Below are positions 23,843 through 48,168 of a stretch of DNA of 64,000 bases, piece by piece (positions within the stretch are counted from its first letter, which is position 1; the number at the start of each line of letters is the position of its first letter). The DNA comes from an uncultured virus (IMG/VR IMGVR_UViG_3300042556_003278). Its lineage: Duplodnaviria; Heunggongvirae; Uroviricota; Caudoviricetes. The position numbers and the translations under genes were made by a program. The DNA lies in IMG/VR virus record IMGVR_UViG_3300042556_003278. One strand, 5' to 3'. The notes under the pieces are model-generated. The model was not told where the DNA came from, ran no database searches, and saw nothing but the letters and a program-made list of their open reading frames with translations.

Positions 23843-24474
23843 GCCACCACTGCCTGAATGCCAGCGTTCCGCAGCACCTATACGGCTATGTGGACAAGCG
23901 ATTCCTGCACGGAATGGATGAGAAATACGCCGGCCAATACGAACCCTGCGTGATATTCGGGGTGACAAGCATCCCAAGCCGCGCTCTGCATTTTTCCATC
24001 CTCTGCGAGAGTGGCGCGCAATGGGCCAGGATGCCCCTCCACGCCCTTTTCCACCACAAACCCGCCGGACATACCCACCCCCTGACCGACCTGCAAATGT
24101 GGGACTGCCATGGATGGGATTTCAGCGTGACCCGCTACGAATACCTGCGGGAAATGGGCTGCGAATACCGGCGCCGAGACGGAAACCTGACCCCCGGTGC
24201 CTATTGGTTCACCCTCGATCACACCGACAACGGCTATTCACAGTATCCGCCGGAGCATAAGTGCTACCATTTGCTGCTCCTCGAAGATGGAACCGGCCAG
24301 ATAACGGCCCAACCGAACAACCGCATCCTTTGGCGCGACGATTCGTTCTGCAAGGCCGGCCATCCGCTCGACTATGCGGTGGTAGCCGAGGACACATGGC
24401 ATGCGGAAATGGGCAGGAACGCGCAGGAAACCGCTTTTACCAAGGATTCCGCGGGAAACGTGTCGAAAGCCTGA
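23839..24474 (+). CDS. Hypothetical His-rich phage protein between terS and terL
   Basis: ATGA coupling; WDC, EHK, QPNNR motifs. Confidence 0.65.
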   Translation: MSHHCLNASVPQHLYGYVDKRFLHGMDEKYAGQYEPCVIFGVTSIPSRALHFSILCESGAQWARMPLHALFHHKPAGHTHPLTDLQMWDCHGWDFSVTRYEYLREMGCEYRRRDGNLTPGAYWFTLDHTDNGYSQYPPEHKCYHLLLLEDGTGQITAQPNNRILWRDDSFCKAGHPLDYAVVAEDTWHAEMGRNAQETAFTKDSAGNVSKA

Positions 24475-24490
24475 ACATATCAGCCACTAT

Positions 24491-30486: not shown

Positions 30487-33400
30487 ATGGCAACGCTGAA
30501 CGACTTACTGAGCGCGGCCAGAGCCGGTGATCGAGGTGCATTGTCTGGACTGCAAGAACGCAGGCAGCGGGGAAACATCCCAGAGTTTGACCTGAAAGAG
30601 CTTTCTTCAATGGAGAAAGCCGCGGCCAAAGCTGACCGCGAGCAGCAGCGGGCCATGGCTTCGGCCGAACGTGAGCAGCGGGCGGCAAGTAAAGAACAGG
30701 GCCGCCAATACGAACGCGATGCGATTGCGTTTTTCACCAGAAACGGCCGAGTCATCCCGATTACTGCACCTTCCGGCGCGCCGATGCGCAAGTGGGGCAA
30801 GTCGGGCACCATGTTTGATCCGGTTACTGGCAAAGCCTACATCCGCGATGACAAGGGCAAGCTGATCGAACAAATCCCAGAGCAGGACGGTAAAACGGTT
30901 AAGAAAGACGGCCACGTTTACAAAGTTGTGGACGGCATGAAGTGGAAGTGGGTTGGCTACGACAAGGACCGCAAAACTGCTGAGGACCGCCGCTTTGACC
31001 GCGATTTGGCTGACAAGACACGCGCACTGAAGCAGGAAATGCAGGACGCGACCGGCGAGTTGACGATGTTGAATAAAGACATCGCCAGCGACCGCGCCCG
31101 CATCCGCGACCTTGATAAGCGAATCAACGATGCCGAAAAATTGTCTGGCGATCAGAGCTTGGTTGCCAGACTGCAAGGCGAGAAAGAGCAGATTCAGGGC
31201 GTGTTGGACGCCAAAGTTGAGCGGCAGGCAAAGGCTGAAATTGATGCTTACCGCGCACGGGCTGAATACAAGGCCGGCCGCGAAGCCGTGGATGCGCAGC
31301 GCAAGGACTACTACGACAACAAGAGCCGCCTTTACTACGACGATGGCAAGCTGCCCAACACGGACCGCAGAGCCGAAGCCACGGCGGGCATGTCCAACTA
31401 CTTGAGCGAGAATGGCAGGGACAACAAAAGCAGTCAGCCTATCAGCCTGTTTGATTCGATTTGGGCCAGCATCGAGGCGGGCAACAAACGATTGGGAGAC
31501 GCTTCCGTGGCCAACGCTAATGCTTTTGCTGATTGGTCCACCAAGCAAACTGTCAGCCCAGAGGCCAACCAGTGGAACATGGGCAAGATGCAGGCCCGCT
31601 CGCAGGATGCCACGGCGCGTCTGTCGGCCGAGGCGGAGATCATGCTGCCCAAGGCTGTTCGAGATGCGACCGGCGTAACTCATGCTCCTCCGAGTTGGTT
31701 CACGCCCGAAGCCATGGAGCGCCAGTTGTCGGCCAAACTGGCCGGTCAGGATGTGATTCACGCTCCTCCGGGCTACAAGCTGGAGGGTGGAACACTTTAC
31801 GCGACGAAAGAGACGAGCAACACGTTCTGGGGTGTGCCGCTTCCGTGGAGCAAGAAGACAACGGCCGAGCCGATTGGTAAGTTCAAGTTTGACCAGTATG
31901 GCGTTGGCTCTGTTGAGCTTGATCCTTTGGCGATGTCTTCGCCCTCGTTTGCTTCCGGTAACTACTACCGCGGGATGCCCGAATACCTGGGTATGCCCAA
32001 GTGGTTCGAGGATTCGGCCAAGCCCAAGATGGGTTCGCAGGTTGTTCCTGAAGTGCGCAAGGAAGTTGAGGCCATGGATTGGCAGAAGGCGGCGGCCGAG
32101 ATGTGGGAGTCGCGCCGGTGGTCGCCGGAGCGGTTGCGCGACACGCTTGACCAGTGGCAAACGGCCAACGACCGGCAGCGCGCCGACCTGATTGCTGAAA
32201 TGGACCCGCGCCAAGCCTCGTTGCGGCCGGAAGACCGCAGGCTGGACACTGGTTGGCTCTATCAACAAGGCCAGTTAAGCGCGCAGGACGCGCGCCTGTT
32301 AAGCAAGACAGCTTACGGCACCAACCCCGACTTTTCGTCATTGCCCGACTCGTTTGACCAGTGGGCCAAGAACAGCCCGACCGCGGCAGCCAAACAGTTT
32401 AGGGAGCAACAGGCCGCGCTACCCAAGATGAATTGGTGGCAGGCGGCGTTGACCAATGTTGCCAGCACCATACCTGGAGCCGGAGTGATTGCGGCGGCGG
32501 TGGGCGCAGTGGCCAACACGGAGCGCGGACGCATTAGTTCGGCCAACACTTACGCGGCCCGCGATGCGTTCATGTCGCAGTATTACCAAGAGACGGCGCG
32601 CAAGACCGATTTCAACCTTCCGGCGTTTGTTCAGGCGCGGGACAAGATGCTTGGTGATGAGTCTTTGGTTGGTTGGGCGAACAACGCTCTGAACAGCACG
32701 TTGCAAAATGCTTTTGGCTCAAGCATTGGAATTATGTTTTCGCAAGCCCCCAAACTTGCGGCTGATTACTTGACCGGCAGCAAATGGCTTTCAAACGAGG
32801 AGCGCACACTGATCAAGGCGCAGACCCAGATTGCGACATCCAATCTTATCAGAGGCGTGACCGACAGACTCCCCTCCTCCTTGCTTGAGGCCGACACGAT
32901 GGGCCGGTTGTTTGCCGGCCTAAATCCGGCGGCGGTGGCGCCCATTTTGTTTAAGTCAGGAGGGTTGGCGCGCGCGGCCGAGGCCGGCAGCAAACTGTAT
33001 TACGGCGAGAAGGGCGGCAAGCTGAACAGCGCAATCAACGATTTGCATGCCTACTTAAACACTGGCCGCGGCGATGAGCGTGAGTTGAAACGACTTTCGG
33101 AAAACGTGCGCGTGGCCTCCGAGGCGTTTCACCAGATGCCACAAGGCCGCGTGGCCGATGTTTTGCGTGGTGCGGCCGGTTATGCTGAAGGCTTTTTGGG
33201 CGGTGATGGAACTGTGGGTGTGCCGACACGTTTGGCTTACGAGAACGACCCGATGGACCCGCGCAGCACGATGAACCGTGCGATGGCCGGTTACATGCAA
33301 ACCATGAGTCCGGCTTATTGGTCCACGTTCAAATCAGGCGCGTTCAACAGCCAGCACGACTTGGCCATTCAGAATTGGGCGGCTAATTATGCCTCACAGA

Positions 33401-36400
33401 ACAACCAGATCAGCGAAAGTTCGCTGTTCGGTCCGTTTCAGATGGCCTTGCGTGGCGGCACGGTGGCTCCGTTGACCGAGACGGCGATTGAGATTGCGAG
33501 CAACTTGGTTGGTGTGGGCGCGGGCAAGATGTTGGTGGCGGGCAAGTGGTTAGCCACGGCCGAGCGCGCGGGCCTGACGCTGAATCGTGCCGGCCGTGCT
33601 GTGGGCAAGCTGGAGGGCATGCAGGAGGCTTTCTTCAACATGGGCAAGGTGACGCGGACGCCCGGAACAGTGCTAACGGCTGGCCAGCAGTTGCGGAACA
33701 CGGCGGTTGATATGTCCAAAATGGCGTGGGCGAGCGGCAGCGGCGAGATGTTCGAGGAAATGGTTGCCTCCTTTGGCGAGGCGGGCGCGACTTTGGGCGA
33801 TGCGGCCGCGCAGGGGTTGTCGGGATTCATTGGCGGCATGGGGTTGAGTTCGATCCATGCGCCGATTGGCGCGGCTTTGGGTAGCTTGCAAGCCGGCCGG
33901 TATGCGGCGGCACAGGACAAGGCTTTGAAGCAGTATGTGGCTGACTACAACACGCGATATGCCGAGACGCCGATCACGCTGGATCAGGCCAAGCAATCGC
34001 AGGGTTATCAGAATCGTGGGCTGGTCGGGACGCTTAACTCGCAGTTGCAGGCTTTAGTGACCGAGGATTTGCGTCTGGCCAATGAGTTCAAGTCTTTGCC
34101 GCCGACGATAGGTGTGCCTGGAGCGGGCGGGACGCCGGTGCTTGGCGTCAACCCGCGGATTGTTGAAATTTTGGCCGAGCGCGAGACGATTCGCGGCCAG
34201 ATTGGGGCGACGATGCTCGATGTGGTCGGGGTGAGCGAGAGTTCGATTGCCGCGGTGCGCGAGGTCAATGGGTTGCCGGAAGGTGAAAAGATTGTGGTGG
34301 ATGCGGCGGTTCGGTTGGTCAGCGGGACGCCGACCACGCCGGCACAGGAGCAAGTTTTGTTGGAGAACGGCGCGTATGTGCGCGGCGAGCGGGTGATTTT
34401 GAGTGATTCGCTGTTGTTGCAGTTGGAGGAGTTGGCTCCGACTACGGCCAAGTTGTTCTTTAAGAAGCAAGAGGCCGAGCAGTTGGCCGAGGCGGACGCG
34501 GTGAGTGGTGGGGAGAGCGCGGTTCCGGTGCAGCAGACGCAGCAACAGACTCAGGCGCCGGTGCAGCCTCCTCCGTTGCCGCAGCAACCGGTAGCACAGG
34601 CACCAGCGCAGCCACAGGTTCAGACGCCGGTTAGGCCACAAGTGCCTGCGCTCACGCCTGCGCAGCGCAAGGCTGCGGCAGATGCGCGGTCCAAGCAGCG
34701 TTACGGTGGGGTGTGGCGGTTTGTCAATGGCCGTGCAGTATTGATTAAGGACAAGGCGCAAGCGGACCAGTTGCCATTGGCTCTTGATCCCAATGAAGCG
34801 GCGGATGCTCAAAATGATGTGGCTGACGACTACACCTTTGAGGCGACTTACACGCCGAAGGGCAGCTTGCGGCCGGTGACGGTGGCGCAAACGGTGAAGG
34901 CAGCCAGCCCAGAGGAGGCGCAGGGCAAGCAGCAGAGTTGGGCTACGGCGATTGAGCGGCGGTTGTCGGATGGACCGGTGCAAGTTGGTCCGGTGCAGGC
35001 GGCGGGCGGTCAGGCAGTGCAACCGGAGTTGACATCTCCCGCGGCGGCTGTCGATTCGGCTATTTTCGAGGCCAAGCCTACGGCCAAGACAGTGACGGCG
35101 ATGGTTGAGGCGGCAGCACCGGTGCTGTTCAACAACCCTGCTTTGCCCAATGTGGTAGTTACGCCGCGGTTGTATGTGACGCGGCGGATGACCAACCCGA
35201 TTACGGATGAACAATACCGGGCTTTGCCGCCGGAGGAGAAGAAACAGTATATTTCGATGCCCAACGGCGGGATGGCGGCGATTGGTGTGCAGGTGGGGCG
35301 CGGGCCGACGATCTTTATTGACCAAGGCCAGTTGGCCAAGACGTTGGCTAATGTTCCGGCGGCGGACCGGCCGGCGCGGATTGCGGCCATGGCGCGCGAG
35401 GAAGTGTTGCATTTGGCGACTACGGAGGTGCGCGGACCGATGGAGCTTGTGGACGATTGGAACAGGTTGCCCGATGTGGTTAAGCGGCGGGTGGTCGAGG
35501 CTTATTATCCGTCCGAAGTGTTGACGGACGCCAATCAGGATTGGCGCAACGTGCAGACCGATCCGCAGCAGATGGCCTTGGAGTTTTGGCGCATGTATCT
35601 GTCGGCAAAGCTGGATGGTGTGACTACGGAGCAGGTGGCCTTTGCGCAGGATGTGGACAGGATGGCCGAGATTGATCCGGCGTTTGCCTCGAACCTTCGT
35701 CAGTTGTTGGAAAACCTTGCCGAATGGCTGCGTGACAAGCTGATGGGCACGCTCGATGACCAAACGCGGGCCGAGTTTGAGGATGTGGCGGCCAAGATCG
35801 AGGCCGAGGCGGCCCGCTTGGAGGGTCGCGGGGTGGCGCCGGCGGCCGTGGCTACGGAAACGGCGGAAACCGTGGCGGAAGATGCGGCTTTGCCGGCCAA
35901 TGAGGCATTTGTTCCGGCCGAGGACACCGGAAACTGGACAAGTGAGGCATTGCGGGCAGCGGTGAAGAACGCGGCGGCGGCCTTTGGCTACAAGATTGTG
36001 GACACCGGCATAGACTTCGGTGTGGTGGACCGGTATGGCAACACGGTCAATGTCGGGACGCAGATGTATGATAAGCTGGTTCCCGGCAGTGAGGTTGGGC
36101 AGTGGATCGACAAGGTGGGCAACAGTGAGTTTGCCGCGGAGATTGCCGACAAGATGGCGACACCGGGATTGCACCGCGTTTGGTTCGGGCATGATTTCCT
36201 GACCAATCTGGACAATGTGGTGGGGCAGTTTGGGTGGAGCGCGGTGCCGGATTTCATTTTGCAGTTGCTCAAGGACAGTCTGACCAAGAGCGGCATCCCC
36301 TTCCCTGGAGTTGAACTATTGGTCCGCGATGGCGCGGTGAGCGACCGAGTTGCTACCGATTGGCTATCCACCAACATCGGGGAAGTTTTTGGCGGTGGCG

Positions 36401-39400
36401 TGGCGTTCTTTGGGACGTATCGGCTGGCGCAAGCGGCACGGCAGGGCAATTTGAACCGGCCGAGAGTGGTTTTTGCTACAGTTGGCGTGGGCATCAAGTT
36501 GGTGGCCGGTGTGGCCACGGCGCAGCCGTTCTTGATCATTTCTGGTCTGGCGGATGCGGCGATTCTGGTGACGAACTTGGATCAGGTGCGCGAAGCCTTT
36601 AAGAAAAGTGCAGACATGGCCAAGGAGCGGCCGGCGCGGCCGGTGGTGCGTCCTCCGCAGATGGTTGAGCCGAGGGTGATGCCTCCGCAGAATCCTCCGG
36701 CCATGGCCCCGCCTGTAGAAGCGGTCGAGGAGGCGCCGAGTGTGGTGGCACCGGAGCCGGTGGCGCAAGCGCCCGCAGAGGCCGTGGAGACTCCGCAACC
36801 GGCCGTTGCCGAAAGGATTGACACAGCGCCCAAGCGTCCGCGCAAGCGCGCGACCAAACCGAAGGCGGTCAAAGTGGCCGATGATGGATTTACTGCCGAC
36901 GATCCGTTCATGCCGGACCCGACCTATGTGCGGGCTGTTCAAGATTTGGGATTCCTGAAGGCTATGCAGCAGGCGGCCAATTCCAACGAGGGCTCAATTT
37001 TGATGTTTGCCTTGGATCAGGAATTGGCGCGGTTGGCCAAAGCGGCCGGCGTAAAGCCGATTACCGGCCGGATGGGTTCTTACAACTACACCGGTTACAG
37101 TGGCACAAGCTCCAAGCAGCGTTTGGCCTTCATCAAAGAAGTGACCAAAAAAGGCGGGGAGGAATTGGGCCGGCAAGTGCGCAAACTGATTGCGGACGCG
37201 GATCGCGCCAAGCCGGTCTTGCAGAAATTGCGAGATGCCGAAGAAGTTGCGCCTCCCCCGATTAAAAAGTTTGCGGCGAAGCCCGAAAAACTGGCGGCCA
37301 ACGTGATTTTGGACGTAAACGGCCGCAAGCCTAACGATTCGGGCGTCTATTCTGAAGCGGACGCAGAGGTTATTGCTTTCCCGGCCAAGAAGTCGCAGCC
37401 GGTGAGCGCGGAGGTTCGTGTCTTGGAGTTGGCTGACGGCCGGTGGCTGGCCAATTTACGCACCGATCACAGGACCGGCGATTATTCAGGCCATTCGTTT
37501 GGCTTGAGCCTGAAATTCAGCAACGATGGCCAAGGTTATGCCAGCCGCGATGAGGCGGTGCGGACCATGCTCGAATACATTATTGCGGAGGAGTCGCGCA
37601 CCATAAGGGCTACGGACAGCATGACCTCCAAGAAGCAGCGCGAGAGCGCGGAGGCCGTTATTGCGTGGGCCGAGGCTGAACTGGACAAGGTGCAGCCGCG
37701 GGAAGTTGTCGCCCCGCAACCGGCGACCGAGTTGGATGCGGCATTTGCTGATCTGGAGCGGTTTTTGAAGCCGGCGGAAGTCCGCGGGCCAGATGGCCTG
37801 ACCGATACAGAGCGCGAAGCCCTCGAAGCGGAACTTCTGGCCGATCAGGAAGCGGAAGCGGTCGATGCGGTGCGTGAAGGCGGTATCGACATTCTCGATG
37901 CGGTGCGCGAGGCGGGCGGATTGCCGGCCAAGACCAGTTCCAAGGTTTACCAATATGCCGGTGAGTTGCAGCGGATCAGAGAAGCGCAACGCCCTGGCAA
38001 TGCGGTCGGGTTGAAGGGCACGTTTAACTTGTTCCGCAACAACGCGCCGGATCTGGATGCTCTTATCAAGGATTTGCAGATTATGGGCTTCCGCGATTTG
38101 GCCACGCCATCTGATTTGTTTGATCTGGTCGAGCGCCGGTTGTCCACCGGACGCCCGATTTACGGCTACGAGGGAATGGTGTTGGCGGCCGCGGCACAAC
38201 CGGCCGGAGCAGATTTCATTGCGGCTCTGACGCGGGTGGCGGATGCGCTGTATGCCGAGGGATTCAACACGCCGGAAACAATGTCGGCGCGCCTTGTCGA
38301 AAGGTTTCCCAATGACATGACGCCCAAGCTGTTGTCGCAGGTGTGGGCAAATGGAACAGAAACAGACCCCGATGTGCAGGTTTCTTGGAAGCAAATTTAC
38401 CAAAAAGCGGTTGACGAAAGTGGGGCTGCCGGTAACAATCAAGTTGGTGAAAGTGACGACAGACAACCAAGCGAAGAAACCGGCGGTGAATCTCCCGCCC
38501 TTCAAGCTGACGCCGCCGAAACCGGGGGACAAACCGGGGGTCTATACGAACGAGCGGGCGGGCGCCGACTGGAAGATGATGGAGGCGTATATGGAGGCTC
38601 GCGGGATCAAGAGCGGGTTCTAAACAAGCTACGGCTTGACGATCAGGGGCGCGAGGAGCGCATAGCAAAAGCCTTTGGCGATTGGCCCGATGGATATTCG
38701 GACCTTGGCATGCCCAACCTGCCGGAAGGTATTTCCGATCCGAACGATTCACGTTTACAGGTCACGCTGGAGAAAGACACGGCGACCATTGTAGCAGGAT
38801 CACTGGCCAATCGACTTTTGGGTATTCCGGCCGGCGAAGTGTCACGGCAAGTGCTCCGCGAAACCATCATCGAATACTTCATGCGCGGCGGGAACGACCG
38901 CCAAGCGTTGTCGGACGTTAAGGAGCCGCAATCGCAGGACAATCCGCTGGTTGTGTTCATGGGCGGCGGTGGTGCGGCAGGAAAGACAAGCCTCCTCCGG
39001 CGCGAGGTGGCCAAGGGCAACATACCTGACGAGGGCCGCGTCTTGAGCAACCCTGACGAGATTCGGGAGTTTCTGCCGGAATACGATTTGCTCAATGAAC
39101 TGAACGATTCGCGCAGTTCAGTCATTACGCACCCTGAAGCCTCTGCCATTTCCGAGGAAATCGAACGCAGGGCGCGGCAGAACAGTTTCCCATTGGTCAT
39201 CGACGGCACCATGAAGAACTCCGAGAAGTCGCTGACCCAAGCCCGAAACCTTCGCGCCGAGGGCTACCGCACCAAAATGATTGCGGTCACGATTGACCCA
39301 TACGAGGCATTGGTCCGTTCTTTCCTCCGAGCCATTGGCAGCAAGCGGTATGTGCCGCCTCCGGTGCTCTTGGGCGCGCACAAGGGATTCAACGCGGCCC

Positions 39401-42400
39401 TGCCGGCTTACATCGAGTTTTTTGGCGATGATCTGGTGATCTACGACAACTCGCCGCAGAACCCGATCCTGTTGTCAGCCGATGACATCTTGAGCGGGCG
39501 GTTCTCTGAAGTGGGCGCGCGCGCTGGCTTGAACGAGAACGCGACCACGCCAGAGGAGTTGTTGGGCAGCTACGGCGAGGCCGACCGGATCGAGCGGCCG
39601 GAGGCCAATCCGCAGCGGGTGGCGGCCGAGGGGATTCTTCCGCTGTTGGAGGAAGGCCGGAAACTGAATTTCGAGAAAGACATTCAACCGATCACTGATG
39701 CGGCTTGGGGCGGCACCCTGGCGGCTGGCACTTACGAAGTTAAAGATGCCTATGATGCGATGGAACTGGCGGTCAACCTGTTCTTGGCGCGCGGCGGGGT
39801 GTTCGATGCCGACCAAGGCTGGAAGTCTTTCGGTCCGGTGGGCGCGATCCGGGCACTGGAGGATTTGCAACAGCGGTTGCCGACCCAGACCAAGCGCAGC
39901 GGCCGCACCGACCGCTATCAGCAATTCTCTACCCCGCCGGTGTTTAGCTTTGTCTCGCATTGGGTAAGCGGAGCCACGGCGGCCGATGTGGTGCTCGAAC
40001 CGAGCGCGGGCATTGGCGGGCTGGCGGTCTATCCGAAGCTGGATGGCGCGACGATCATTGCCAACGAGCTTGAGTCCAAGCGCATCGACTTCCTGCGTGA
40101 GATGGGCTTTGACCATCTGACTACCGAGAACGCCGAGCAGATTGACGCCATTCTGGAACCGCGCTTTGCCTCCGGTTCCCTCCCCCGCCCCACTGTGGTC
40201 AACATGAACCCGCCGTTCTCCAACGCGGCCAAGAGTGGCAAGACCGGCCAGACCATGGTGGGCGCCAAGCATGTCGAATCCGCGTTGAAGGCGTTGCGCC
40301 CTGGCGGGCGTCTGGTGGCCATTGTGGGCGAAGGTATGGGCTTGGATACACCTACCTTCCGCCAATGGTGGCAGAACATGGCCAAGCAATACCATGTGCG
40401 GGCCAACATCTGGGTGGATGGCCGCAATTACACCAAATACGGCACAAGTTTCAGCAATCGGCTCCTTGTCATCGACAAAGTGGCACCGCCGGCCGGTTCA
40501 ACCAACAAGAACATCATTCAGGGCCAAATTGACGATTTGGCCGATCTGATTACATTACTACAAGGAGTCCGCAATGACCGACCAACTATCCAACCATCCG
40601 CTGAACAAGCTGGCACTGGCGATGCTCAATCGCTGGAGTCGGCGGGAACTGCCCGAACTGATGCCGGTGCTCGAACTGGCACTGGAAGCCGTGCCGGAAG
40701 GTCTGGAGGACGGACCGGAAGGACAGGCGTTCGACAGAGCGAAACGGCGCGACCCGCAGACAGTGTTGGACGAGTTGAGCGAGGCGTTTCAGATGGAGGA
40801 CTTGCTGGACGCGGACAATCTGAAGGACGCGGGACAGATGATCCTCAACGAACTGATGGGCAACGGACAGGTGACGGACAGCCAGTTATACCGGGAAGCG
40901 GCCGAGAATCCGTAGAACAGACCGGAATCACGGTCGAAGGCGCGCAGACCAGCGCGCGCAGCATTCAAAACGAGGACGATGTGTTCGCCCTCTATACTCC
41001 GGCCAAGGTCAGGATTCCGGGTGCGCAGAAACATTTGGCTCCGCTGGTCGAGAGCGCGGCCATGGCCAGCGTTCCCCCACCCGATCCGACCTACACGCCG
41101 AACTTGGCCAAGGAAGTCATTACCGAGGGACGGATTTCCGAGACGAGTCTGGAAAACATTGTCTATGCAGGTCAGGCGCATAGCCAAGTGCTGCCGAGCG
41201 GAGAACGCCGCGGGTATTTCATTGGTGACGGCACCGGAGTCGGCAAGGGCCGCCAGATTGCCGGCATCATCATGGACAATCTGCGCCAAGGCAGGAAGAA
41301 AGCGGTCTGGATTTCCAAGTCGGGCGGGCTGATCGAGGACGCCAAGCGCGATGTCGAGGATGTTGGTTTGGACCCGAAGAAGGTGCTCATGCTGAACAAG
41401 GTCAAGAAGGGCAAGAAGGTCGAGGCGGCCGATGGCATTTTGTTCACCACTTACGACACGCTCAAGGGTGGGCACCAGACATTGACCGAAGGCGCGCAGG
41501 GTTGGTGGGACAAGATCAAAGAGCACAACTCGCGCATGAAGCAGATTGCCGAGTGGCTTGGCAAAGATTTTGACGGCGTGATTGCCTTGGACGAAGCGCA
41601 CAAGGCAGGCAACGCGATTGCGGTCAAAGGCAACCGCGGGTTGAAGCAACCGAGTCAGGCCGGCGTGGCTGTGGTTGACCTGCAAAAACTTCTGCCCAAT
41701 GCGCGTGTGGTTTATGTGTCGGCCACCGGCGCGACTGAAGTGGAGAATCTTTCCTATGCGGACCGGCTTGGCATCTGGGGCGAAGGAACGCCGTTCCCGA
41801 ACAAGCAGAATTTCTTTGATAAAATCCGCGCCGGTGGTGTTTCGGCCATGGAAGTGGTCGCGCGCGACCTGAAGGCGCAGGGTTTGTATCTGGCTCGCAG
41901 CATTTCCTACAAGGGCGTCGAGTTTGCCCGCCTGACGCACAACCTGACGCCGGATCAGGAACGACTTTACAATCGGATTGCTACGGCATGGCAAGCGGTG
42001 TTGTCCAACATGGACCGCATCATGGACGAAACCGGCGCGGTCAATAGCCGCCGAGCCAGGTCAAACGCGGCCAGTGCCTTCTGGGGCGCGCAGCAACGGT
42101 TCTTTAACCAACTCCTAACCGGCTTGCAGCTACCGGCTTTGCTGGAGGACATGGATCAGCAGCTTGCGGCCGGCAATAGCGCGGTCCTGCAACTGGTCAA
42201 TACCGGCGAGGCGGTCGAGAAGCGTGCTCTGGCCAAGGCCCGCACCGAGGCCGAAGGCGACGAAATCCCGATGGAGGATTTGGATTTGTCGCCGCGGCAA
42301 ATCCTTTTGGACTTCTTGGACAAGAGCTTCCCCACGGATCTTTACGAAGAAGTGCAAGACCCTGACAACCCGGAGCGCACTGTTTGGAATAAAGTTCTCA

Positions 42401-45400
42401 ACAGCGAAGGCCAGCCTGTGCAGTCCCCCGCGGCCGTGGCCGAGAAAGAGCGTTTGATGGATGAGGTCGCCCTGATCGACATGCCGGAAAGCCCGCTTAA
42501 CCAGATAATCAACCGGTTTGGACCGGATAGCGTGGCAGAAGTGACCGGACGGACGCAGCGCGTGGTTACAGTCCGCAAAGGTGGCAAGACTGAAACCAAG
42601 ATCGAGAAGCGGAGCAAGGCGCAAGCGCGGGCCGATGCGCAAGATTTCCAAGATGGCAAACGCCGAATTTTGATTTTCTCCGATGCCGGCGGCACCGGGT
42701 TCAGTTTCCACGCCAGCAATCGGGCCAAGAACAAGCAACGCCGCGTTCACTATCTGGTTCAGGCCGGATGGCGGGCCGACAACGCGCTTCAGGGATTTGG
42801 GCGGACACACCGCACCGATCAAGCCAGCGCGCCGATTTATCGCCTCCTCGAAACAAACATCAAGGGTCACAAGCGGTTTATCGCCTCGATTGCCCGCCGG
42901 TTGGCGCAGTTGGGCGCCTTGACCACCGGTGAACGCCGGACGGCCGGCCAAGGCATGTTCAGCGACAGTGACAATCTGGAAAGTCCGTATTCGGCTGATG
43001 CTCTGTGGCGGTTGATGAACGACCTGTATAACGAGCGGGTCGAGGGATTCACTTTTGATGAGTTCAGCGAATCTTTGGGCTACGTCACCACGCGCGAAGG
43101 CCGGAAGGTCAACAAGCTGGTATCGCAGCAAGGCGGGCTGGCCGATGACCAGCGGCCGCCGATAACGCAATTTTTGAACCGCATCCTTGCGCTTCCGCTG
43201 GACCGGCAGAACACGCTTTTCGACTTGTTCATGGAGCGGTTAGAACGGCGGATCGAGACGGCCAAGGATGACGGCAGCTTTGATCCAGGGACGCAAAACT
43301 ACCGCGCCGAGCGTGTCGAGGTGGTTTCCGATGATGTGGTCTATACGCAACCGGACACTGGAGCGACCACGCGGCTGGTAGAAATTGAAGCCTTTGAGGA
43401 TCAGATTTTCACCACCTTCGAGGAGGCCGAGCGCGGCGGGGCCATTATGTGGGTCAAGAACCGCCGGAGCGGCAACGTCTTTGCCCTGCGCGAAGGGCCG
43501 CCGCGGACGCTGGACAATGGTTCAGTGGTGCCGCAATGGCGGCGGGTGGGCATTGTTGGCAATTCGATGGTGCAAAAGGCCGATGTCACCTTGCAGCCCG
43601 GACGCATGGAAGGCGGGAAGCTGGTGGACGCCGGCAACTACCAAGAAGTTACCCGCGACGAGGCGGCGACTCTTTGGGATTCGCAAATAGCGAACGCGCC
43701 CAAGGAAACCAAACGCAAAGACCATTTCCTGATTGGCGTGATGCTTCCGGTCTGGGACCGGCTTGGCTTGGAGCGGACGCGCATCTTCCGGTTCACTCCG
43801 ACCACCGGCGAGCCAATGCTTGGGGTGCAGGTGCCATCCAAGGATGTTCCGGGGCTGCGCATGCGTATGGGCGCGCGCAATACCATGACCGCCGAGCAGG
43901 CGTTCGACATGGTGATGACCGATGGGGCCAATCTGAATCTGGCCAATGGCTGGCGCATTGAGCGGCGGCGGGTGTCGGGCGAACTGCGCGTTGAGGTAAG
44001 TGGGTTAAATTACGACCAAGGCCGCGCTTTTGCCGACCAATTTGGCGGCATCATGGAGCGGATTCAATACACGCCCAGGTTTTTTATCACGGATTCCGAA
44101 GTGATGCAGCGGGTCATGGACCGCAGTCCGGTGACGCAAATCAACGGCGAAGATGTCAATTTTTCCGACAATTCGCCGGTGGTGGCCGGCGCCCGCCGTC
44201 TGGTCACGCCGGAGGATATGGACGCCGACATGGACGATCAGGCGCAATGGATATTTGAACAAGCACAACTAAGAGATTATGAATCAACAGATGAACTCCT
44301 CGCAGAAGAACCCGAAACTTTCGTTGGACTTGCTGCCCAATGGCGTGAAACTCACCCAAGAGCAGTTGGAAGTCCTGCGCAGAGCGCGGGTTCTGGCGGA
44401 CAAACCGAAGATGGGCGCATCGAAGCCCTTGTAACTGACAACCTTGGGCTGGCGACCGCGCTGGCCGGCAGGTTCAACATCCCGCGGATCGACTTCGAGG
44501 ACAAGGTTCAGGAGGCCCGGATCGGGCTTCTCACAGCCGCACAATCTTTCGACGCGGGCCGCGGGGTTCCTTTTGGAGCCTATGCCACGCGGGTAATCCG
44601 CAACCGGCTGAACAATCTCTACCGCGAACAGCGGCGGATTGCTGGCGCCGAAGTGCGGGAACTGGACGCGCCGGTGGGCGAAATGGACGGAGAAACCGGC
44701 CAAAGCATGCTGGCTGACCAGTTTGAGGACGCGCCCAACAATGACGATCTGGCCATTATCCGCGAGATCATGGATGACTTGCCCGCGCGCCCCCGGCGCA
44801 TTTGGCAGGGCGTTATGGCTGGCAAGACCTATGACGCCATCGGTGCGGAGGAAGGAATTTCCAAGCAGGCGGTGCAGCAAACCATGGTGGCCACGCAAAA
44901 CACGCTGCGCCGGCAGTTGGCAAAACGCGGAATCAACAGTGTTGACGATGTGTTTGCCCAAAAGGATCGGTTTGATACCGGCCGCGTCGAGGGTATGCGG
45001 CAGCAGTTGGATGACGAAGAAGCCAAAGTGGCGGCCGCGCGTCCATCCGTGGAGGCCGAACTGGCGCAAATTGCCGAGGAACGGCAGAAAGCACAGGATT
45101 TCCGCAAGGCGGCCGATCAGACGCCGAATAGCCCGCTTTTACCTGGAGCCAAGGAGTGGTATAGCACTTGGCTTCGCGGCCGGATGGACAAGCTGGAGTT
45201 TTACGCTCCGGGCGCCAAGGCGGCCATGTTGGACAACCGGCGCAACGAGGCTTTGGTCGCGGCGACGATCAACAGCATGATGCAGCAAATCCGCGACGAT
45301 ATTACGCGGGCCTTTGGCTATCCGGCCTTCTGGAGCAAAAACAAGAAGCGGTTGCAAAATTTCTTGGATGAATTGCTGCCGGTGGCCGCGCGCCTCGAAG

Positions 45401-48168
45401 TGGACCGCCTCGATGACAACGGCGACTTTGTGTTCAAGCCGTTCCTGATGCGCGCCGGAACGATCAACGCGGCCAAGGTGCGGGCCAACAAGTTCAAGGT
45501 GGGCGACATGATCACGACCGACCGCGGCCGCTTTGAGCTTGGGCCGGAAATCGACGGCGGCCGGTATTTGCTTCTGAAATCCATGCCGGTTGAGGTGCAG
45601 CAACAGATTTACCAAGACTTCCATGCCCGCTACCCCGAATCCGCGCACTATCTGGACCGGTGGATTATGCCGGGGATGCAAGAGGCGCGCTACATGGGGC
45701 CGCAGGGCACCATGACGGCCGAGTTTAACCGCTACGCGCTGCGCGACCTGTTCAACGAGTGGCCGCAGGAGTTGAAAGATATGTTTGGCGGGGTTCCCCT
45801 CCCCGATCTTCCGTATGTCGAGGGCTACACGCCGGACGTTGCCGAGGCCAAGACCTTGGGCGCCATGATCGGAAGCCTGTTGCGGTCCTTCCGGTCCGGC
45901 GCCCGCAAGATGAAGGCTGGCGAGGCCCGCGAAACCGGCAACATCAAGAATCTGTTTGAAGGCTTTTCGGTCCGCGCCATGGAGGCCCACCGCGAGAAAA
46001 TCCGCGTCTTGACCCGCCAGCGATTGATCGAGGCGGCCGCGGTGGATGGCAACCGGATTCCGAAGGATCAAGCCAGCAACTATGTCGAGCTTGACCAGAC
46101 CTACCGCAAACTCCTCGAAGCGGTGAAGATTGCCCGCCGGCTCAATCCCAAGGCGTTCCCCGCCCTGACCGGCGCGCTGTCTCCGCAGGATCAGAAGGCC
46201 ATGGCCAAGATTTTGGGTGATGCCTTCCGGCTGCGCGGCCGCGGGCTGATGATCCACAAGGAAGTGGAGCGCGAATTGATGTTGGGCATATCTCGTCAGG
46301 TTACAAACAACGCTCTGACACGCATCCTCTCTGGGCTTCTGGAGCGGTATAACGCGGGGCTTCTGGCCACGCCGTTTACCGTTATCACGAATTGGGCGAG
46401 CAACGAGATCATCAAGGTGGTGCGCATGGGCAACCGGCTCAATTACACGCTGGTCAATATAGCGGCCGGCGATGTCAACGCGGCCAAATTGGGCGGATAT
46501 GAACTGATGTATCTACTGCGCGGATTCATCACCGACCGGTTCCCGCAATGGCAGCAGGAACGGATCGGCAAGGTGGTTCCGCGGGAGATGTTCGATGACC
46601 AGACCGGCCTCGAAGCCATGGACATTGACCCGAATATCTCTGTCAAACAGCAGTTGGGACGGCTCAACTTGGGCGGTGCCTTCATGCAGGCGGTGGGCTA
46701 CGGCGAAATCGACATCCGCCAGAAGCAGCAAATGGCCTACGCGGCCTACCGCGCCCACGCGCAGGTAGCGTGGAACGAGGCCAAACGCCGTGGCGAGGTA
46801 TCAAATGATACCAACCGGCGGGAATGGCAGCAGAATTGGATCGCCAATGCGCCGGCCGAGATTCACCGGGACGTTTATCTCACAACGGTGATGTATTTGA
46901 TGGACTACCAGAACGTGCCGGCTTGGCTCGATCCGCAGCAATCCATGACCGCCACCGGTCAAATTGTGAAGCGCGGCCTATTTCCGTTTGTCAAATGGCC
47001 TTACAACATGGCCCGCCAATTCAAGCGGCTGACCTTCGATGCCGCCCTGAACACAATCATGGCCGGTCGCACCAAGCAGCAGCGCATCGAGGGCATGGCA
47101 AACCTGATGACCATGGGCGCGCTGGCGGCTATAGGCACGGCGATTGCCATGGCTGACGATGACGAGGACGATCCGCTTCTGGGGGCCAGCGTCGATGAGG
47201 AAGGCAACCTGTTGGACGCCGCTTTCCGCACCAAGAACCGCCTCAACCTGTCGAGGTTGGCCCGCATTATCTTTGCCCATGGCCTGATGCGGGAAACCGA
47301 GTTCACCCTGGATGACGGCTCCGGTGAAGACAAAGACCTTTGGTGGAGGTATCGCAACTACCCTTACTTGAAAGAGGGTATTGCCATGGGTCTTCTGTTG
47401 TCCGGCAAAACAGACAAAGCCTTGGAGCAATTCTCCGACATTTCTGGGGAATACGTCAGCTTGGGCATGCTGGCCAAGATTGTCGGAATGTCCTCCTTTG
47501 ACCAAGACAAGCCGGTGGGCTTCCGCTTGGGCGAGGTTGCCTACGATGTGGGCACGGCCGGCGTCCTCCCTACCCCTTGGCGGCAGTTTGCTACCCGCAT
47601 GGTTGATCCGGTCATGCGCCGGTCCCGCGAGGCCGAGCCTTTGGGATACTCTGCCGGTCCTCTGGACGCCATTCGCGCCAATACTCCGTTTTTATCGCGC
47701 ACTGTTCCGACCACCGGTGAATTGGGCCGTTCAGCTTATGCGCCATTCAGCGCGGAAAGCTGGTTCAGCAAAGAGAAGAAAGCCGTTCAAAAGTCCAATA
47801 TGCCCGCGGACGAAAAGCGCGCCACCATCGACGCCCTGCGCCAGCAAGCGACCAAACTCAACATGACACCGGCCCAACAAGCCGATTTTATGAAGCTGGC
47901 TGGTCTGCCGGTGGAGCAATTCAATATGCGTGGAACATCAAGCGTTCCTGCCGTGGCCAACTTGGAGCGGCTTCGCAGCATGGGCGTGGGGCCGGAAGCC
48001 TACGCGGTCATCGAGACAACGGACAAACGCGGGCAGACATCAACCCAACTGGTCGCGCCGAAGGCTTCGGCCATTGGCTACCAGCCCCGCGGACTTCAGG
48101 CTTTGCGCTTTTTCGGAGGGGTCAACCTGATGGCCGTGCCCCGCGGCCGGCGAGAACTTGCCAAGTAG
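30487..48168 (+). CDS. 5,893-aa polyvalent/DarB-like internal virion protein: helical N-terminus, zincin-like EEVLH, zeta-toxin-like P-loop kinase, adenine MTase, Strawberry-notch helicase, sigma-70 r2+r4, helical C-terminus
   Basis: GGGGAAGKTS..NPDEIR..DGT (~38950-39470); EPSAGIGG..NPPFS (~39860-40500); GDGTGVGKGR, DEAH, SATG, QGFGRTHR (~40980-43300); sigma motifs (~44410-44935). Confidence 0.9.
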   Translation: MATLNDLLSAARAGDRGALSGLQERRQRGNIPEFDLKELSSMEKAAAKADREQQRAMASAEREQRAASKEQGRQYERDAIAFFTRNGRVIPITAPSGAPMRKWGKSGTMFDPVTGKAYIRDDKGKLIEQIPEQDGKTVKKDGHVYKVVDGMKWKWVGYDKDRKTAEDRRFDRDLADKTRALKQEMQDATGELTMLNKDIASDRARIRDLDKRINDAEKLSGDQSLVARLQGEKEQIQGVLDAKVERQAKAEIDAYRARAEYKAGREAVDAQRKDYYDNKSRLYYDDGKLPNTDRRAEATAGMSNYLSENGRDNKSSQPISLFDSIWASIEAGNKRLGDASVANANAFADWSTKQTVSPEANQWNMGKMQARSQDATARLSAEAEIMLPKAVRDATGVTHAPPSWFTPEAMERQLSAKLAGQDVIHAPPGYKLEGGTLYATKETSNTFWGVPLPWSKKTTAEPIGKFKFDQYGVGSVELDPLAMSSPSFASGNYYRGMPEYLGMPKWFEDSAKPKMGSQVVPEVRKEVEAMDWQKAAAEMWESRRWSPERLRDTLDQWQTANDRQRADLIAEMDPRQASLRPEDRRLDTGWLYQQGQLSAQDARLLSKTAYGTNPDFSSLPDSFDQWAKNSPTAAAKQFREQQAALPKMNWWQAALTNVASTIPGAGVIAAAVGAVANTERGRISSANTYAARDAFMSQYYQETARKTDFNLPAFVQARDKMLGDESLVGWANNALNSTLQNAFGSSIGIMFSQAPKLAADYLTGSKWLSNEERTLIKAQTQIATSNLIRGVTDRLPSSLLEADTMGRLFAGLNPAAVAPILFKSGGLARAAEAGSKLYYGEKGGKLNSAINDLHAYLNTGRGDERELKRLSENVRVASEAFHQMPQGRVADVLRGAAGYAEGFLGGDGTVGVPTRLAYENDPMDPRSTMNRAMAGYMQTMSPAYWSTFKSGAFNSQHDLAIQNWAANYASQNNQISESSLFGPFQMALRGGTVAPLTETAIEIASNLVGVGAGKMLVAGKWLATAERAGLTLNRAGRAVGKLEGMQEAFFNMGKVTRTPGTVLTAGQQLRNTAVDMSKMAWASGSGEMFEEMVASFGEAGATLGDAAAQGLSGFIGGMGLSSIHAPIGAALGSLQAGRYAAAQDKALKQYVADYNTRYAETPITLDQAKQSQGYQNRGLVGTLNSQLQALVTEDLRLANEFKSLPPTIGVPGAGGTPVLGVNPRIVEILAERETIRGQIGATMLDVVGVSESSIAAVREVNGLPEGEKIVVDAAVRLVSGTPTTPAQEQVLLENGAYVRGERVILSDSLLLQLEELAPTTAKLFFKKQEAEQLAEADAVSGGESAVPVQQTQQQTQAPVQPPPLPQQPVAQAPAQPQVQTPVRPQVPALTPAQRKAAADARSKQRYGGVWRFVNGRAVLIKDKAQADQLPLALDPNEAADAQNDVADDYTFEATYTPKGSLRPVTVAQTVKAASPEEAQGKQQSWATAIERRLSDGPVQVGPVQAAGGQAVQPELTSPAAAVDSAIFEAKPTAKTVTAMVEAAAPVLFNNPALPNVVVTPRLYVTRRMTNPITDEQYRALPPEEKKQYISMPNGGMAAIGVQVGRGPTIFIDQGQLAKTLANVPAADRPARIAAMAREEVLHLATTEVRGPMELVDDWNRLPDVVKRRVVEAYYPSEVLTDANQDWRNVQTDPQQMALEFWRMYLSAKLDGVTTEQVAFAQDVDRMAEIDPAFASNLRQLLENLAEWLRDKLMGTLDDQTRAEFEDVAAKIEAEAARLEGRGVAPAAVATETAETVAEDAALPANEAFVPAEDTGNWTSEALRAAVKNAAAAFGYKIVDTGIDFGVVDRYGNTVNVGTQMYDKLVPGSEVGQWIDKVGNSEFAAEIADKMATPGLHRVWFGHDFLTNLDNVVGQFGWSAVPDFILQLLKDSLTKSGIPFPGVELLVRDGAVSDRVATDWLSTNIGEVFGGGVAFFGTYRLAQAARQGNLNRPRVVFATVGVGIKLVAGVATAQPFLIISGLADAAILVTNLDQVREAFKKSADMAKERPARPVVRPPQMVEPRVMPPQNPPAMAPPVEAVEEAPSVVAPEPVAQAPAEAVETPQPAVAERIDTAPKRPRKRATKPKAVKVADDGFTADDPFMPDPTYVRAVQDLGFLKAMQQAANSNEGSILMFALDQELARLAKAAGVKPITGRMGSYNYTGYSGTSSKQRLAFIKEVTKKGGEELGRQVRKLIADADRAKPVLQKLRDAEEVAPPPIKKFAAKPEKLAANVILDVNGRKPNDSGVYSEADAEVIAFPAKKSQPVSAEVRVLELADGRWLANLRTDHRTGDYSGHSFGLSLKFSNDGQGYASRDEAVRTMLEYIIAEESRTIRATDSMTSKKQRESAEAVIAWAEAELDKVQPREVVAPQPATELDAAFADLERFLKPAEVRGPDGLTDTEREALEAELLADQEAEAVDAVREGGIDILDAVREAGGLPAKTSSKVYQYAGELQRIREAQRPGNAVGLKGTFNLFRNNAPDLDALIKDLQIMGFRDLATPSDLFDLVERRLSTGRPIYGYEGMVLAAAAQPAGADFIAALTRVADALYAEGFNTPETMSARLVERFPNDMTPKLLSQVWANGTETDPDVQVSWKQIYQKAVDESGAAGNNQVGESDDRQPSEETGGESPALQADAAETGGQTGGLYERAGGRRLEDDGGVYGGSRDQERVLNKLRLDDQGREERIAKAFGDWPDGYSDLGMPNLPEGISDPNDSRLQVTLEKDTATIVAGSLANRLLGIPAGEVSRQVLRETIIEYFMRGGNDRQALSDVKEPQSQDNPLVVFMGGGGAAGKTSLLRREVAKGNIPDEGRVLSNPDEIREFLPEYDLLNELNDSRSSVITHPEASAISEEIERRARQNSFPLVIDGTMKNSEKSLTQARNLRAEGYRTKMIAVTIDPYEALVRSFLRAIGSKRYVPPPVLLGAHKGFNAALPAYIEFFGDDLVIYDNSPQNPILLSADDILSGRFSEVGARAGLNENATTPEELLGSYGEADRIERPEANPQRVAAEGILPLLEEGRKLNFEKDIQPITDAAWGGTLAAGTYEVKDAYDAMELAVNLFLARGGVFDADQGWKSFGPVGAIRALEDLQQRLPTQTKRSGRTDRYQQFSTPPVFSFVSHWVSGATAADVVLEPSAGIGGLAVYPKLDGATIIANELESKRIDFLREMGFDHLTTENAEQIDAILEPRFASGSLPRPTVVNMNPPFSNAAKSGKTGQTMVGAKHVESALKALRPGGRLVAIVGEGMGLDTPTFRQWWQNMAKQYHVRANIWVDGRNYTKYGTSFSNRLLVIDKVAPPAGSTNKNIIQGQIDDLADLITLLQGVRNDRPTIQPSAEQAGTGDAQSLESAGTARTDAGARTGTGSRAGRSGGRTGRTGVRQSETARPADSVGRVERGVSDGGLAGRGQSEGRGTDDPQRTDGQRTGDGQPVIPGSGRESVEQTGITVEGAQTSARSIQNEDDVFALYTPAKVRIPGAQKHLAPLVESAAMASVPPPDPTYTPNLAKEVITEGRISETSLENIVYAGQAHSQVLPSGERRGYFIGDGTGVGKGRQIAGIIMDNLRQGRKKAVWISKSGGLIEDAKRDVEDVGLDPKKVLMLNKVKKGKKVEAADGILFTTYDTLKGGHQTLTEGAQGWWDKIKEHNSRMKQIAEWLGKDFDGVIALDEAHKAGNAIAVKGNRGLKQPSQAGVAVVDLQKLLPNARVVYVSATGATEVENLSYADRLGIWGEGTPFPNKQNFFDKIRAGGVSAMEVVARDLKAQGLYLARSISYKGVEFARLTHNLTPDQERLYNRIATAWQAVLSNMDRIMDETGAVNSRRARSNAASAFWGAQQRFFNQLLTGLQLPALLEDMDQQLAAGNSAVLQLVNTGEAVEKRALAKARTEAEGDEIPMEDLDLSPRQILLDFLDKSFPTDLYEEVQDPDNPERTVWNKVLNSEGQPVQSPAAVAEKERLMDEVALIDMPESPLNQIINRFGPDSVAEVTGRTQRVVTVRKGGKTETKIEKRSKAQARADAQDFQDGKRRILIFSDAGGTGFSFHASNRAKNKQRRVHYLVQAGWRADNALQGFGRTHRTDQASAPIYRLLETNIKGHKRFIASIARRLAQLGALTTGERRTAGQGMFSDSDNLESPYSADALWRLMNDLYNERVEGFTFDEFSESLGYVTTREGRKVNKLVSQQGGLADDQRPPITQFLNRILALPLDRQNTLFDLFMERLERRIETAKDDGSFDPGTQNYRAERVEVVSDDVVYTQPDTGATTRLVEIEAFEDQIFTTFEEAERGGAIMWVKNRRSGNVFALREGPPRTLDNGSVVPQWRRVGIVGNSMVQKADVTLQPGRMEGGKLVDAGNYQEVTRDEAATLWDSQIANAPKETKRKDHFLIGVMLPVWDRLGLERTRIFRFTPTTGEPMLGVQVPSKDVPGLRMRMGARNTMTAEQAFDMVMTDGANLNLANGWRIERRRVSGELRVEVSGLNYDQGRAFADQFGGIMERIQYTPRFFITDSEVMQRVMDRSPVTQINGEDVNFSDNSPVVAGARRLVTPEDMDADMDDQAQWIFEQAQLRDYESTDELLAEEPETFVGLAAQWRETHPRAVGSPAQSAGSGGQTEDGRIEALVTDNLGLATALAGRFNIPRIDFEDKVQEARIGLLTAAQSFDAGRGVPFGAYATRVIRNRLNNLYREQRRIAGAEVRELDAPVGEMDGETGQSMLADQFEDAPNNDDLAIIREIMDDLPARPRRIWQGVMAGKTYDAIGAEEGISKQAVQQTMVATQNTLRRQLAKRGINSVDDVFAQKDRFDTGRVEGMRQQLDDEEAKVAAARPSVEAELAQIAEERQKAQDFRKAADQTPNSPLLPGAKEWYSTWLRGRMDKLEFYAPGAKAAMLDNRRNEALVAATINSMMQQIRDDITRAFGYPAFWSKNKKRLQNFLDELLPVAARLEVDRLDDNGDFVFKPFLMRAGTINAAKVRANKFKVGDMITTDRGRFELGPEIDGGRYLLLKSMPVEVQQQIYQDFHARYPESAHYLDRWIMPGMQEARYMGPQGTMTAEFNRYALRDLFNEWPQELKDMFGGVPLPDLPYVEGYTPDVAEAKTLGAMIGSLLRSFRSGARKMKAGEARETGNIKNLFEGFSVRAMEAHREKIRVLTRQRLIEAAAVDGNRIPKDQASNYVELDQTYRKLLEAVKIARRLNPKAFPALTGALSPQDQKAMAKILGDAFRLRGRGLMIHKEVERELMLGISRQVTNNALTRILSGLLERYNAGLLATPFTVITNWASNEIIKVVRMGNRLNYTLVNIAAGDVNAAKLGGYELMYLLRGFITDRFPQWQQERIGKVVPREMFDDQTGLEAMDIDPNISVKQQLGRLNLGGAFMQAVGYGEIDIRQKQQMAYAAYRAHAQVAWNEAKRRGEVSNDTNRREWQQNWIANAPAEIHRDVYLTTVMYLMDYQNVPAWLDPQQSMTATGQIVKRGLFPFVKWPYNMARQFKRLTFDAALNTIMAGRTKQQRIEGMANLMTMGALAAIGTAIAMADDDEDDPLLGASVDEEGNLLDAAFRTKNRLNLSRLARIIFAHGLMRETEFTLDDGSGEDKDLWWRYRNYPYLKEGIAMGLLLSGKTDKALEQFSDISGEYVSLGMLAKIVGMSSFDQDKPVGFRLGEVAYDVGTAGVLPTPWRQFATRMVDPVMRRSREAEPLGYSAGPLDAIRANTPFLSRTVPTTGELGRSAYAPFSAESWFSKEKKAVQKSNMPADEKRATIDALRQQATKLNMTPAQQADFMKLAGLPVEQFNMRGTSSVPAVANLERLRSMGVGPEAYAVIETTDKRGQTSTQLVAPKASAIGYQPRGLQALRFFGGVNLMAVPRGRRELAK
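38447..38623 (+). CDS. Nested +1-frame ORF A (58 aa) just before the zeta-toxin domain
   Basis: TTGACG-N17-AACAAT at 38411-38439; GTG 36 nt after -35; host frame is linker-like here. Confidence 0.55.
   Translation: MKVTTDNQAKKPAVNLPPFKLTPPKPGDKPGVYTNERAGADWKMMEAYMEARGIKSGF
40574..40915 (+). CDS. Nested +1-frame ORF B (113 aa, acidic helical) between MTase and helicase
   Basis: AAGGAG SD at 40562; protein-like composition while host frame is a G/R/T-rich linker. Confidence 0.7.
   Translation: MTDQLSNHPLNKLALAMLNRWSRRELPELMPVLELALEAVPEGLEDGPEGQAFDRAKRRDPQTVLDELSEAFQMEDLLDADNLKDAGQMILNELMGNGQVTDSQLYREAAENP
44279..44434 (+). CDS. Nested +1-frame ORF C (51 aa) just before the sigma domain
   Basis: MNQQMNSSQKNPKLSLDLLPNGVKLTQEQLEVLRRARVLADKPKMGASKPL; host-frame codons turn A/T-ending here. 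Confidence 0.5.
   Translation: MNQQMNSSQKNPKLSLDLLPNGVKLTQEQLEVLRRARVLADKPKMGASKPL

Follow-up and report, generated by a model that had tools for sequence, protein, structure and literature searches.

Can the interdomain linkers of a giant phage protein carry small genes of their own in a second reading frame? This question is raised by an uncultured virus of the Caudoviricetes (IMG/VR record IMGVR_UViG_3300042556_003278), of which one stretch of 64,000 nucleotides (nt), hereafter the window, was analysed. The window contains a giant polyvalent-protein gene (30487..48168; 5,893 amino acids (aa), from the open reading frame (ORF) list and Pfam domains). A preliminary description had singled out three small ORFs within it, here called A (38447..38623), B (40574..40915) and C (44279..44434), and proposed that each encodes a cognate inhibitor or partner of the module that follows and is kept because the giant gene reads through it as a linker. 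The giant gene, its modules, the three ORFs and the motifs ahead of them are all on the + strand. Comparative evidence indicates that ORF B, which lies between an adenine-methylase and a helicase module, is a real nested gene whose conservation, start signals included, extends well beyond the window phage. ORFs C and A are considered after it.

All three ORFs are in the +1 frame relative to the giant frame (38351/38447..38623, 40574..40915 and 44279..44434 against 30487..48168), and each precedes a module as had been claimed: the distance to the next Pfam match is 288 nt for ORF A (zeta toxin) and 114 nt for ORF B (helicase), and ORF C stops where the sigma match starts. Their length is no more than expected by chance. 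The giant gene contains 25 +1 ORFs of at least 51 aa, compared with 22-23 (standard deviation about 3) after shuffling of codon order or of synonymous codons. A +1 stop can arise only where a main-frame codon has T as its middle base, as those for F, L, I, M and V do, and a hydrophilic linker is therefore automatically open in +1. The three ORFs could thus all be by-products of linker composition, with linkers rich in G, A, E, D, R and P, and G/C-rich at first codon positions, mimicking a high G+C content at the third codon position (GC3) in the +1 frame. A similar case is present in the relative L003, where 254 codons are open in +1 over a ParB-like domain while main-frame GC3 is normal and the +1 peptide is junk.

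The composition of the main frame was also assessed. As the preliminary description had noted, the giant frame loses its bias for G/C-ending codons at the three ORFs, with GC3 falling from 0.70 overall to 0.42-0.44 in A, 0.34 in B and 0.33 in C; the +1-frame GC3 of the same intervals is 0.75-0.81. All 60-codon scanning segments with a giant-frame GC3 of 0.50 or less are in or beside ORFs A, B and C, and milder dips (0.50-0.58) occur at four other places. With 20 other window genes as the training set for a codon-usage likelihood, we scanned 585 segments and found that the +1 frame outscored the main frame solely in ORFs A, B and C, most strongly in ORF B (about -6 versus +13), which bears out the claim that this frame looks like normal coding sequence. 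The sole other place where a non-main frame (here +2) slightly outscored the giant frame was a P/Q/A-rich linker at 34477-34716. A test of weak power, the +1 compatibility of main-frame changes in relatives known from protein only, gave 0.73-0.90 for B, 0.59-0.76 for A and 0.59-0.83 for C over a background of 0.57-0.62.

We next describe the relatives. Close-relative DNA could be obtained only as a 99% record (L085) and a 95% relative (L001), both from IMG/VR. Two scans of genome contigs for DNA of the 81-88% protein relatives gave nothing useful, and the phage collection INPHARED contained neither a DNA match nor a Strawberry-notch protein match to the window helicase. All 24 sequencing runs found were DNA metagenomes, with no RNA run among them; diverged contigs from four lake and freshwater runs cover the region. 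A single metagenome scan with main-frame methylase peptides as the query returned 80 methylase-helicase loci of about 40% identity; as these loci were picked blind to the +1 frame, they form the decisive set for ORF B.

Among the loci that carry both modules, the methylase and the helicase were in one frame in 72 of 73, separated by a linker of approximately 230-400 nt that was free of stops in the main frame and, in most loci, in +1 as well. Main-frame GC3 of the linker stayed at 0.22-0.50 across loci whose own GC3 ranged from 0.25 to 0.91, so that the main-frame third position behaves there as a second codon position. The by-product explanation leaves such A/T-rich third positions unexplained in genomes with a GC3 of 0.7-0.9. 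A +1 ORF of at least 80 aa was present in the linker of 69 distant loci, of L001 and of the window, in every case with an ATG start. The +1 peptides are homologous (M[TSA]DQ ... N..PLNQ.A..LL ... LYL.QLA ... P.EAAE.L..L) and end at a stop directly before the helicase, and the main-frame translation of the same bases is an unconserved, low-complexity run of G, R, S, T, E, D and P. Of 91 sources, 82 gave a match in the +1 ORF to a profile built from the +1 alignment (A2). The 80 metagenome loci accounted for 75 of these matches and for five misses, three of which are at loci that stop short of the linker; the count is circular for the 39 loci that went into the profile. Eight gene-caller ORFs of 112-113 aa from close relatives of the window likewise start with MTDQ and are 77-99% identical to ORF B. 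An origin of ORF B by compensated frameshift was rejected, as the domain was in frame in none of 120 large main-frame proteins. At one locus (L030:1608-3218) the methylase and helicase are in different frames and an ORF-B-like peptide is continuous with the helicase frame, a layout that is due to a frameshift in the assembly or to natural variation.

The position of substitutions within codons was then compared inside and outside the ORF. For this, 16 pairs without a common locus, at 78-99% nucleotide identity, were used; they are not strictly independent, because one clade (about 80% identity) supplies several of them. Inside the ORF, substitutions fell at main-frame positions 1, 2 and 3 in the ratio 281:204:149 (0.44, 0.32 and 0.24), compared with 519:322:1921 (0.19, 0.12 and 0.70) in the flanks, and the two distributions differed with a chi-square p of 4e-101. 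Proportions of synonymous (pS) and nonsynonymous (pN) differences were obtained from Nei-Gojobori counts pooled over the 16 pairs. The +1 frame inside the ORF had a pS of 0.245 and a pN of 0.087 (pN/pS 0.35). The main frame over the same bases had a pS of 0.098 and a pN of 0.130 (pN/pS 1.33), and in its flanks a pS of 0.300 and a pN of 0.039 (pN/pS 0.13). Between the window and L001, ORF B differs by five changes, of which four are synonymous and one nonsynonymous in +1 and all five are nonsynonymous (none synonymous) in the main frame. These patterns indicate that the +1 frame of ORF B is under purifying selection.

The main frame has nevertheless been kept open. None of the 66 distinct ORFs contained a main-frame stop, whereas shuffling the synonymous codons of the +1 ORF introduced a mean of 2.2 and the third frame contains 3-25, which indicates that the host frame is selected to stay open yet is free to vary in its residues. 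Taken with the start codon and the fold described below, the contrast between a pN/pS of 0.35 in +1 and 1.33 in the main frame is what the by-product explanation fails to account for. It is excluded for ORF B and improbable for the three ORFs taken together, although it is the best reading for ORF A, where substitutions track the main frame.

A related explanation, which we consider very improbable, is that the +1 frames are fossils of small genes or gene tails that were swallowed on fusion into the giant ORF and are no longer translated or selected. If the +1 gene were the older of the two, its product should be ordered and that of the host frame disordered, which is what the two frames show. 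The distant polyvalent protein of contig L004 bears a different embedded ORF at the ORF A junction, and three proteins with an ORF-B domain behind another N-terminal part (P0136, P0138 and P0141; 216-223 aa) would also fit with such an origin. A fossil, however, would drift towards equal rates at the three codon positions, whereas the purifying selection on ORF B is ongoing between relatives that are only 1-20% diverged, and the start codon, the Shine-Dalgarno (SD)-like motif and the stop are kept in nearly all loci.

The start signals of ORF B were examined separately. The SD-like motif AAGGAG reported previously is present at 40562..40567, six nt ahead of the ATG at 40574. A GGAG, GAGG or AGGA was found 4-13 nt upstream in 48 of 52 distinct start regions (that of L001 among them) compared with 10% at random positions, a conservation to which the main frame may contribute, its own conserved motif L-[EG]-G-[IV]-R being encoded by some of the same bases. 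The ATG is kept even where GC3 is near 0.9, although the overlapping main-frame residue changes: it may be N, D or H, but its codon is always xAT and the next codon begins with G. A promoter-like sequence, TTGACG-N16-TACATT (40529..40556; a consensus match only), ends 17 nt ahead of the ATG and has a counterpart at the matching place in L001 and L003. Such a site occurred in seven of 55 loci of the ORF-B family, where 3.8% would be expected (consensus matches only). The whole interval 37500-45500 contains three such consensus matches against 2.4 expected, and two of them are directly upstream of A and B.

These signals also bear on the least probable of the explanations, programmed ribosomal frameshifting into the +1 stretches, by which the giant protein would be cut short just ahead of its zeta, helicase or sigma module. 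SD-like sequences are known to stimulate frameshifting, as in prfB and dnaX. That each +1 ORF ends at a module boundary, and that ORF A has no conserved start or SD (its GTG lacks one), would suit this explanation, but many ORF B loci open one codon before the ATG, with a +1 stop directly upstream that leaves almost no room for a shift site, the ATG is conserved against main-frame residue changes, and no slippery motif was noticed, although no formal search was made.

The predicted product of ORF B (113 aa) is acidic, with an isoelectric point (pI) of 4.25, and all-alpha. Across the family, the nested proteins have a median length of 126 aa and a median pI of 4.63 (59 of 66 below 5.5), and 36% of their residues are hydrophobic, compared with 13% in the main-frame tether. 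AlphaFold2 run on the +1 alignment returned a confident seven-helix model (predicted local distance difference test (pLDDT) score 85.2, predicted template modelling score 0.75). In P0136, P0138 and P0141, which are on contigs of 1.2-5 kb, the ORF-B domain (72-83% identical) forms the C-terminal half, behind an unrelated, strand-rich N-terminal part. These longer proteins had no Pfam match, and the 223-aa fused form P0141, modelled from a three-sequence alignment, folded poorly (pLDDT 41). They may represent a free-standing or differently embedded form of ORF B.

The nested ORF was also found on plasmids. It is present on plasmid NC_016108 of Methylotuvimicrobium alcaliphilum 20Z (L090:2624-2968; profile E value 8e-20), and tblastn with a single peptide also places it on two Methylomonas plasmids and one Thioflavicoccus plasmid. 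In NC_016108 and NZ_CP064652.1, the two of the four records that have a feature under the match in the PLSDB gene table, which is incomplete, the RefSeq annotation gives the large ORF alone and lacks the nested one. Together with the phage loci, these records indicate that the embedded ORF is a feature of one clade of methylase-helicase proteins from phages and conjugative plasmids. The earlier proposal had a small gene travelling with each domain; ORF B goes with the whole methylase-helicase pair and not with the helicase by itself.

Several observations weigh against a nested gene, or against its generality. To the limits given above for the profile count, the substitution pairs and the SD motif are added the following. 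Single-peptide tblastn detected the nested ORF in only four plasmid records, compared with 565 records in the plasmid collection that have this type of helicase. It was absent from the methylase-Strawberry-notch proteins of Mesorhizobium pMLb and Nostoc pCC7120alpha, and ORF B therefore marks one clade and not the whole family. ORF B had no significant family match in Pfam or PHROGs. Its predicted fold had no Foldseek match among solved structures at an E value of 0.001 or below, and the best VIA-align Z was a weak 3.2; such weak structure matches are no evidence for a new fold.

On balance, we put the probability that 40574-40915 is dual-coding, as a disordered tether in the giant frame and as a folded +1 protein started by the SD motif and ATG, at roughly four in five. 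Under this dual-coding reading, the giant frame would read the 342 bases as a hydrophilic, disordered tether between the adenine-methylase and the Strawberry-notch helicase. The internal SD site and ATG would start a second translation in the +1 frame, and its product would be the acidic, seven-helix protein of 113 aa, with its stop codon directly ahead of the helicase module. We infer that this small protein is probably made from the internal start and serves its methylase-helicase. A dedicated partner role seems most likely because recombination cannot separate the small protein from the methylase-helicase. As a partner, it could act as an escort or chaperone, small and acidic, by which the transferred protein is held in a competent state. 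It could also be a regulator that restrains the methylase-helicase in the producing cell, of which the cognate inhibitor of the preliminary description would be one form.

ORF C (44279..44434; 51 aa) is a candidate nested +1 ORF that is restricted to one lineage. It starts with ATG, three nt after a weak AAGAG, and both this ATG and the open frame are preserved in L001. Across its full length, the window and L001 differ by a balanced set of changes (7:2:5 at main-frame positions 1, 2 and 3). The six changes within 44287-44405, however, are all at main-frame position 1 and leave the +1 peptide unchanged while altering main-frame residues, whereas third positions in the neighbouring segments differ at approximately 26%. 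In the centre of the ORF (44288-44407), where changes are few, the counts were 5 of 29 synonymous and 2 of 91 nonsynonymous sites in +1, and 1 of 29 and 6 of 88 in the main frame. The signature comes from 14 substitutions in one pair. Three observations oppose an old gene: the main frame of the interval is itself conserved in 43%-identity relatives, L004 at the corresponding place has normal GC3, a junk +1 peptide and no +1 signal, and the protein collection contains no called homologue. ORF C matched nothing in Pfam or PHROGs and showed no similarity to a known anti-sigma family. We consider the odds about even that ORF C is a young embedded ORF limited to close relatives of the window phage.

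ORF A (38447..38623) is doubtful as a gene. Its composition is coding-like, it starts with GTG at 38447 within a frame that is also open from an ATG at 38351, and the promoter-like TTGACG-N17-AACAAT noted previously is present at 38411..38439, eight nt ahead of the GTG (a consensus match only). It stays open in L001. Constraint on the +1 frame was not evident: between the window and L001, 3 of 60 synonymous and 16 of 204 nonsynonymous sites differed in +1, compared with 8.5 of 64 and 10.5 of 197 in the main frame. Thus pN/pS in +1 was above 1 in the sole informative DNA pair, and the main frame is the selected one, which tells against a gene; the 3' part of the ORF is in a near-identical block of this pair and is uninformative. 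In relatives, two called ORFs of 63-67 aa, P0142 and P0144, have the C-terminal motif of ORF A in common (72% and 57% identity), but part of this motif is encoded by the bases for conserved residues of the main frame (L-E-D, R-D-Q-E-R-V-L-N). Searches of Pfam and PHROGs at E values up to 0.1 or 0.001 returned no epsilon-antitoxin or other family. The data make it rather unlikely that ORF A is a gene, and the most likely reading is that a hydrophilic linker gave rise to it as a by-product or fossil. The proposal that the small genes are kept by being read through as linkers is supported for ORF B, is supported tentatively and in close relatives only for ORF C, and is not supported for ORF A.

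At the junction where the window carries ORF A, the L004 protein (an IMG/VR contig) has an embedded +1 ORF of its own. This ORF (L004:1808-2191; 127 aa) is directly after a conserved SQVWANG domain and has its start at AAGGAGG-N9-ATG, and main-frame GC3 dips over it to 0.30-0.44 from 0.78 overall. It had no Pfam match and was not matched by the ORF-B profile. The case hints that the embedded-ORF phenomenon may recur. A broader possibility, which we raise tentatively and do not favour over its converse, is that polyvalent proteins carry a hidden second gene layer, in which interdomain tethers double as small, folded, SD-driven genes, so that each module junction could supply a dedicated chaperone, inhibitor or co-effector that recombination cannot separate from its module, ORF B being ancient and widespread and ORF C and L004 1808-2191 younger.

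The giant gene of the window is flanked by a terminase-like gene upstream (24401-26320) and a portal-like gene downstream (48193-50229), both assigned by PHROGs. Upstream of the ORF B linker, the giant frame encodes a zeta-toxin-like P-loop kinase module (38911..39453; Pfam PF06414 Zeta_toxin, E value 1.7e-27) and the adenine-methylase module with its NPPF motif region (39604..40572; alignment A3), in which N-P-P-F is invariant across alignment A3 and for which Pfam gives a weak Rossmann-type match. Downstream are the Strawberry-notch-type helicase module (40915..43293; alignment A4), with Pfam matches to AAA_34 at 41029-41976 and Helicase_C_4 at 42493-43293, and a sigma-70 region 2 module (44428..44637; PF04542 Sigma70_r2, E value 2.1e-14). 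Zeta_toxin, methylase, AAA_34 with Helicase_C_4 and Sigma70_r2 are thus all within one ORF of 5,893 aa, as expected of a polyvalent protein, and the homologue P0072 is named by its source as 'PLxRFG domain-containing'. The closest records to the window are viral contigs. Protein searches returned full-length homologues at 81-100% identity (P0001-P0008), and full-length homologues range in size from 3,782 to 5,988 aa.

Divergence between the window and L001 is a mosaic: the stretch that runs from about 38557 to about 44000 has approximately 2-3 changes per 114 nt, and the sequence on either side of it has 14-35 per 114 nt, which suggests a recent swap of the zeta-methylase-helicase block between phages. 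In L003, a 50%-identity relative, the flanking domains are retained but a ParB-like domain with a DGHH motif (L003:1696-2124) stands where the window has the zeta module and linker A, which illustrates module swapping at the zeta junction.

To our knowledge, long same-strand overlapping genes conserved across distant bacteria-associated elements are very rare, and they are hard to prove without expression data. For ORF B, the comparative data would serve as the proof, as approximately 340-480 bases are read in two frames across relatives whose GC3 runs from 0.25 to 0.91. The result would add an unannotated protein family to the widespread anti-restriction or establishment proteins of conjugative plasmids and phages, and would provide a natural model of how dual coding is tolerated, with the overlap placed in a linker. 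A dip in third-position composition inside a long gene also offers a usable means of finding embedded genes.

The host protein resembles the methylase-helicase dyad described for polyvalent proteins, of which DarB of phage P1 is the archetype (Iyer et al. 2017, PMC5512222). As in that dyad, an adenine methylase is fused to a SWI2/SNF2-type helicase (here Strawberry-notch-like) in a giant phage protein encoded in the head-gene region. It differs in the second frame, which the main text of that paper does not describe, the words overlapping, frameshift and linker not occurring there. Literature listings on polyvalent proteins, strawberry notch, overprinting and nested genes showed no description of the embedded ORF, subscription journals being outside this coverage.

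Other known systems offer partial parallels. ORF A is upstream of a zeta-toxin-like module, as epsilon is of zeta, but it matches no family in Pfam or PHROGs, and its +1 frame shows no selection in the close relative. VirE1-type secretion chaperones are small, acidic and helical and are encoded with the protein that is transferred. ORF B would be small, acidic and helical in the same way, a functional analogy put forward as a hypothesis, with no homology or structural match found between the two. In Bacillus subtilis, comS is a small regulatory ORF embedded out of frame within the giant multi-modular srfA, and is known only from a narrow group. The arrangement of ORF B is alike in this respect, but its family spans main-frame GC3 values from 0.25 to 0.91 and occurs on plasmids as well as phages. 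The spanin genes of phage lambda provide a further case, in which Rz1 is embedded in +1 within Rz and both products are made and act together. Like Rz1, ORF B is a small gene wholly within the +1 frame of a larger phage gene; unlike Rz1, which is inside the gene of a small protein, it is inside an interdomain linker of a multi-domain protein, and the two have no relation in sequence or fold. Embedded genes are therefore known as a kind, and what is new in ORF B is its placement in an interdomain linker, its length and the breadth of its conservation.

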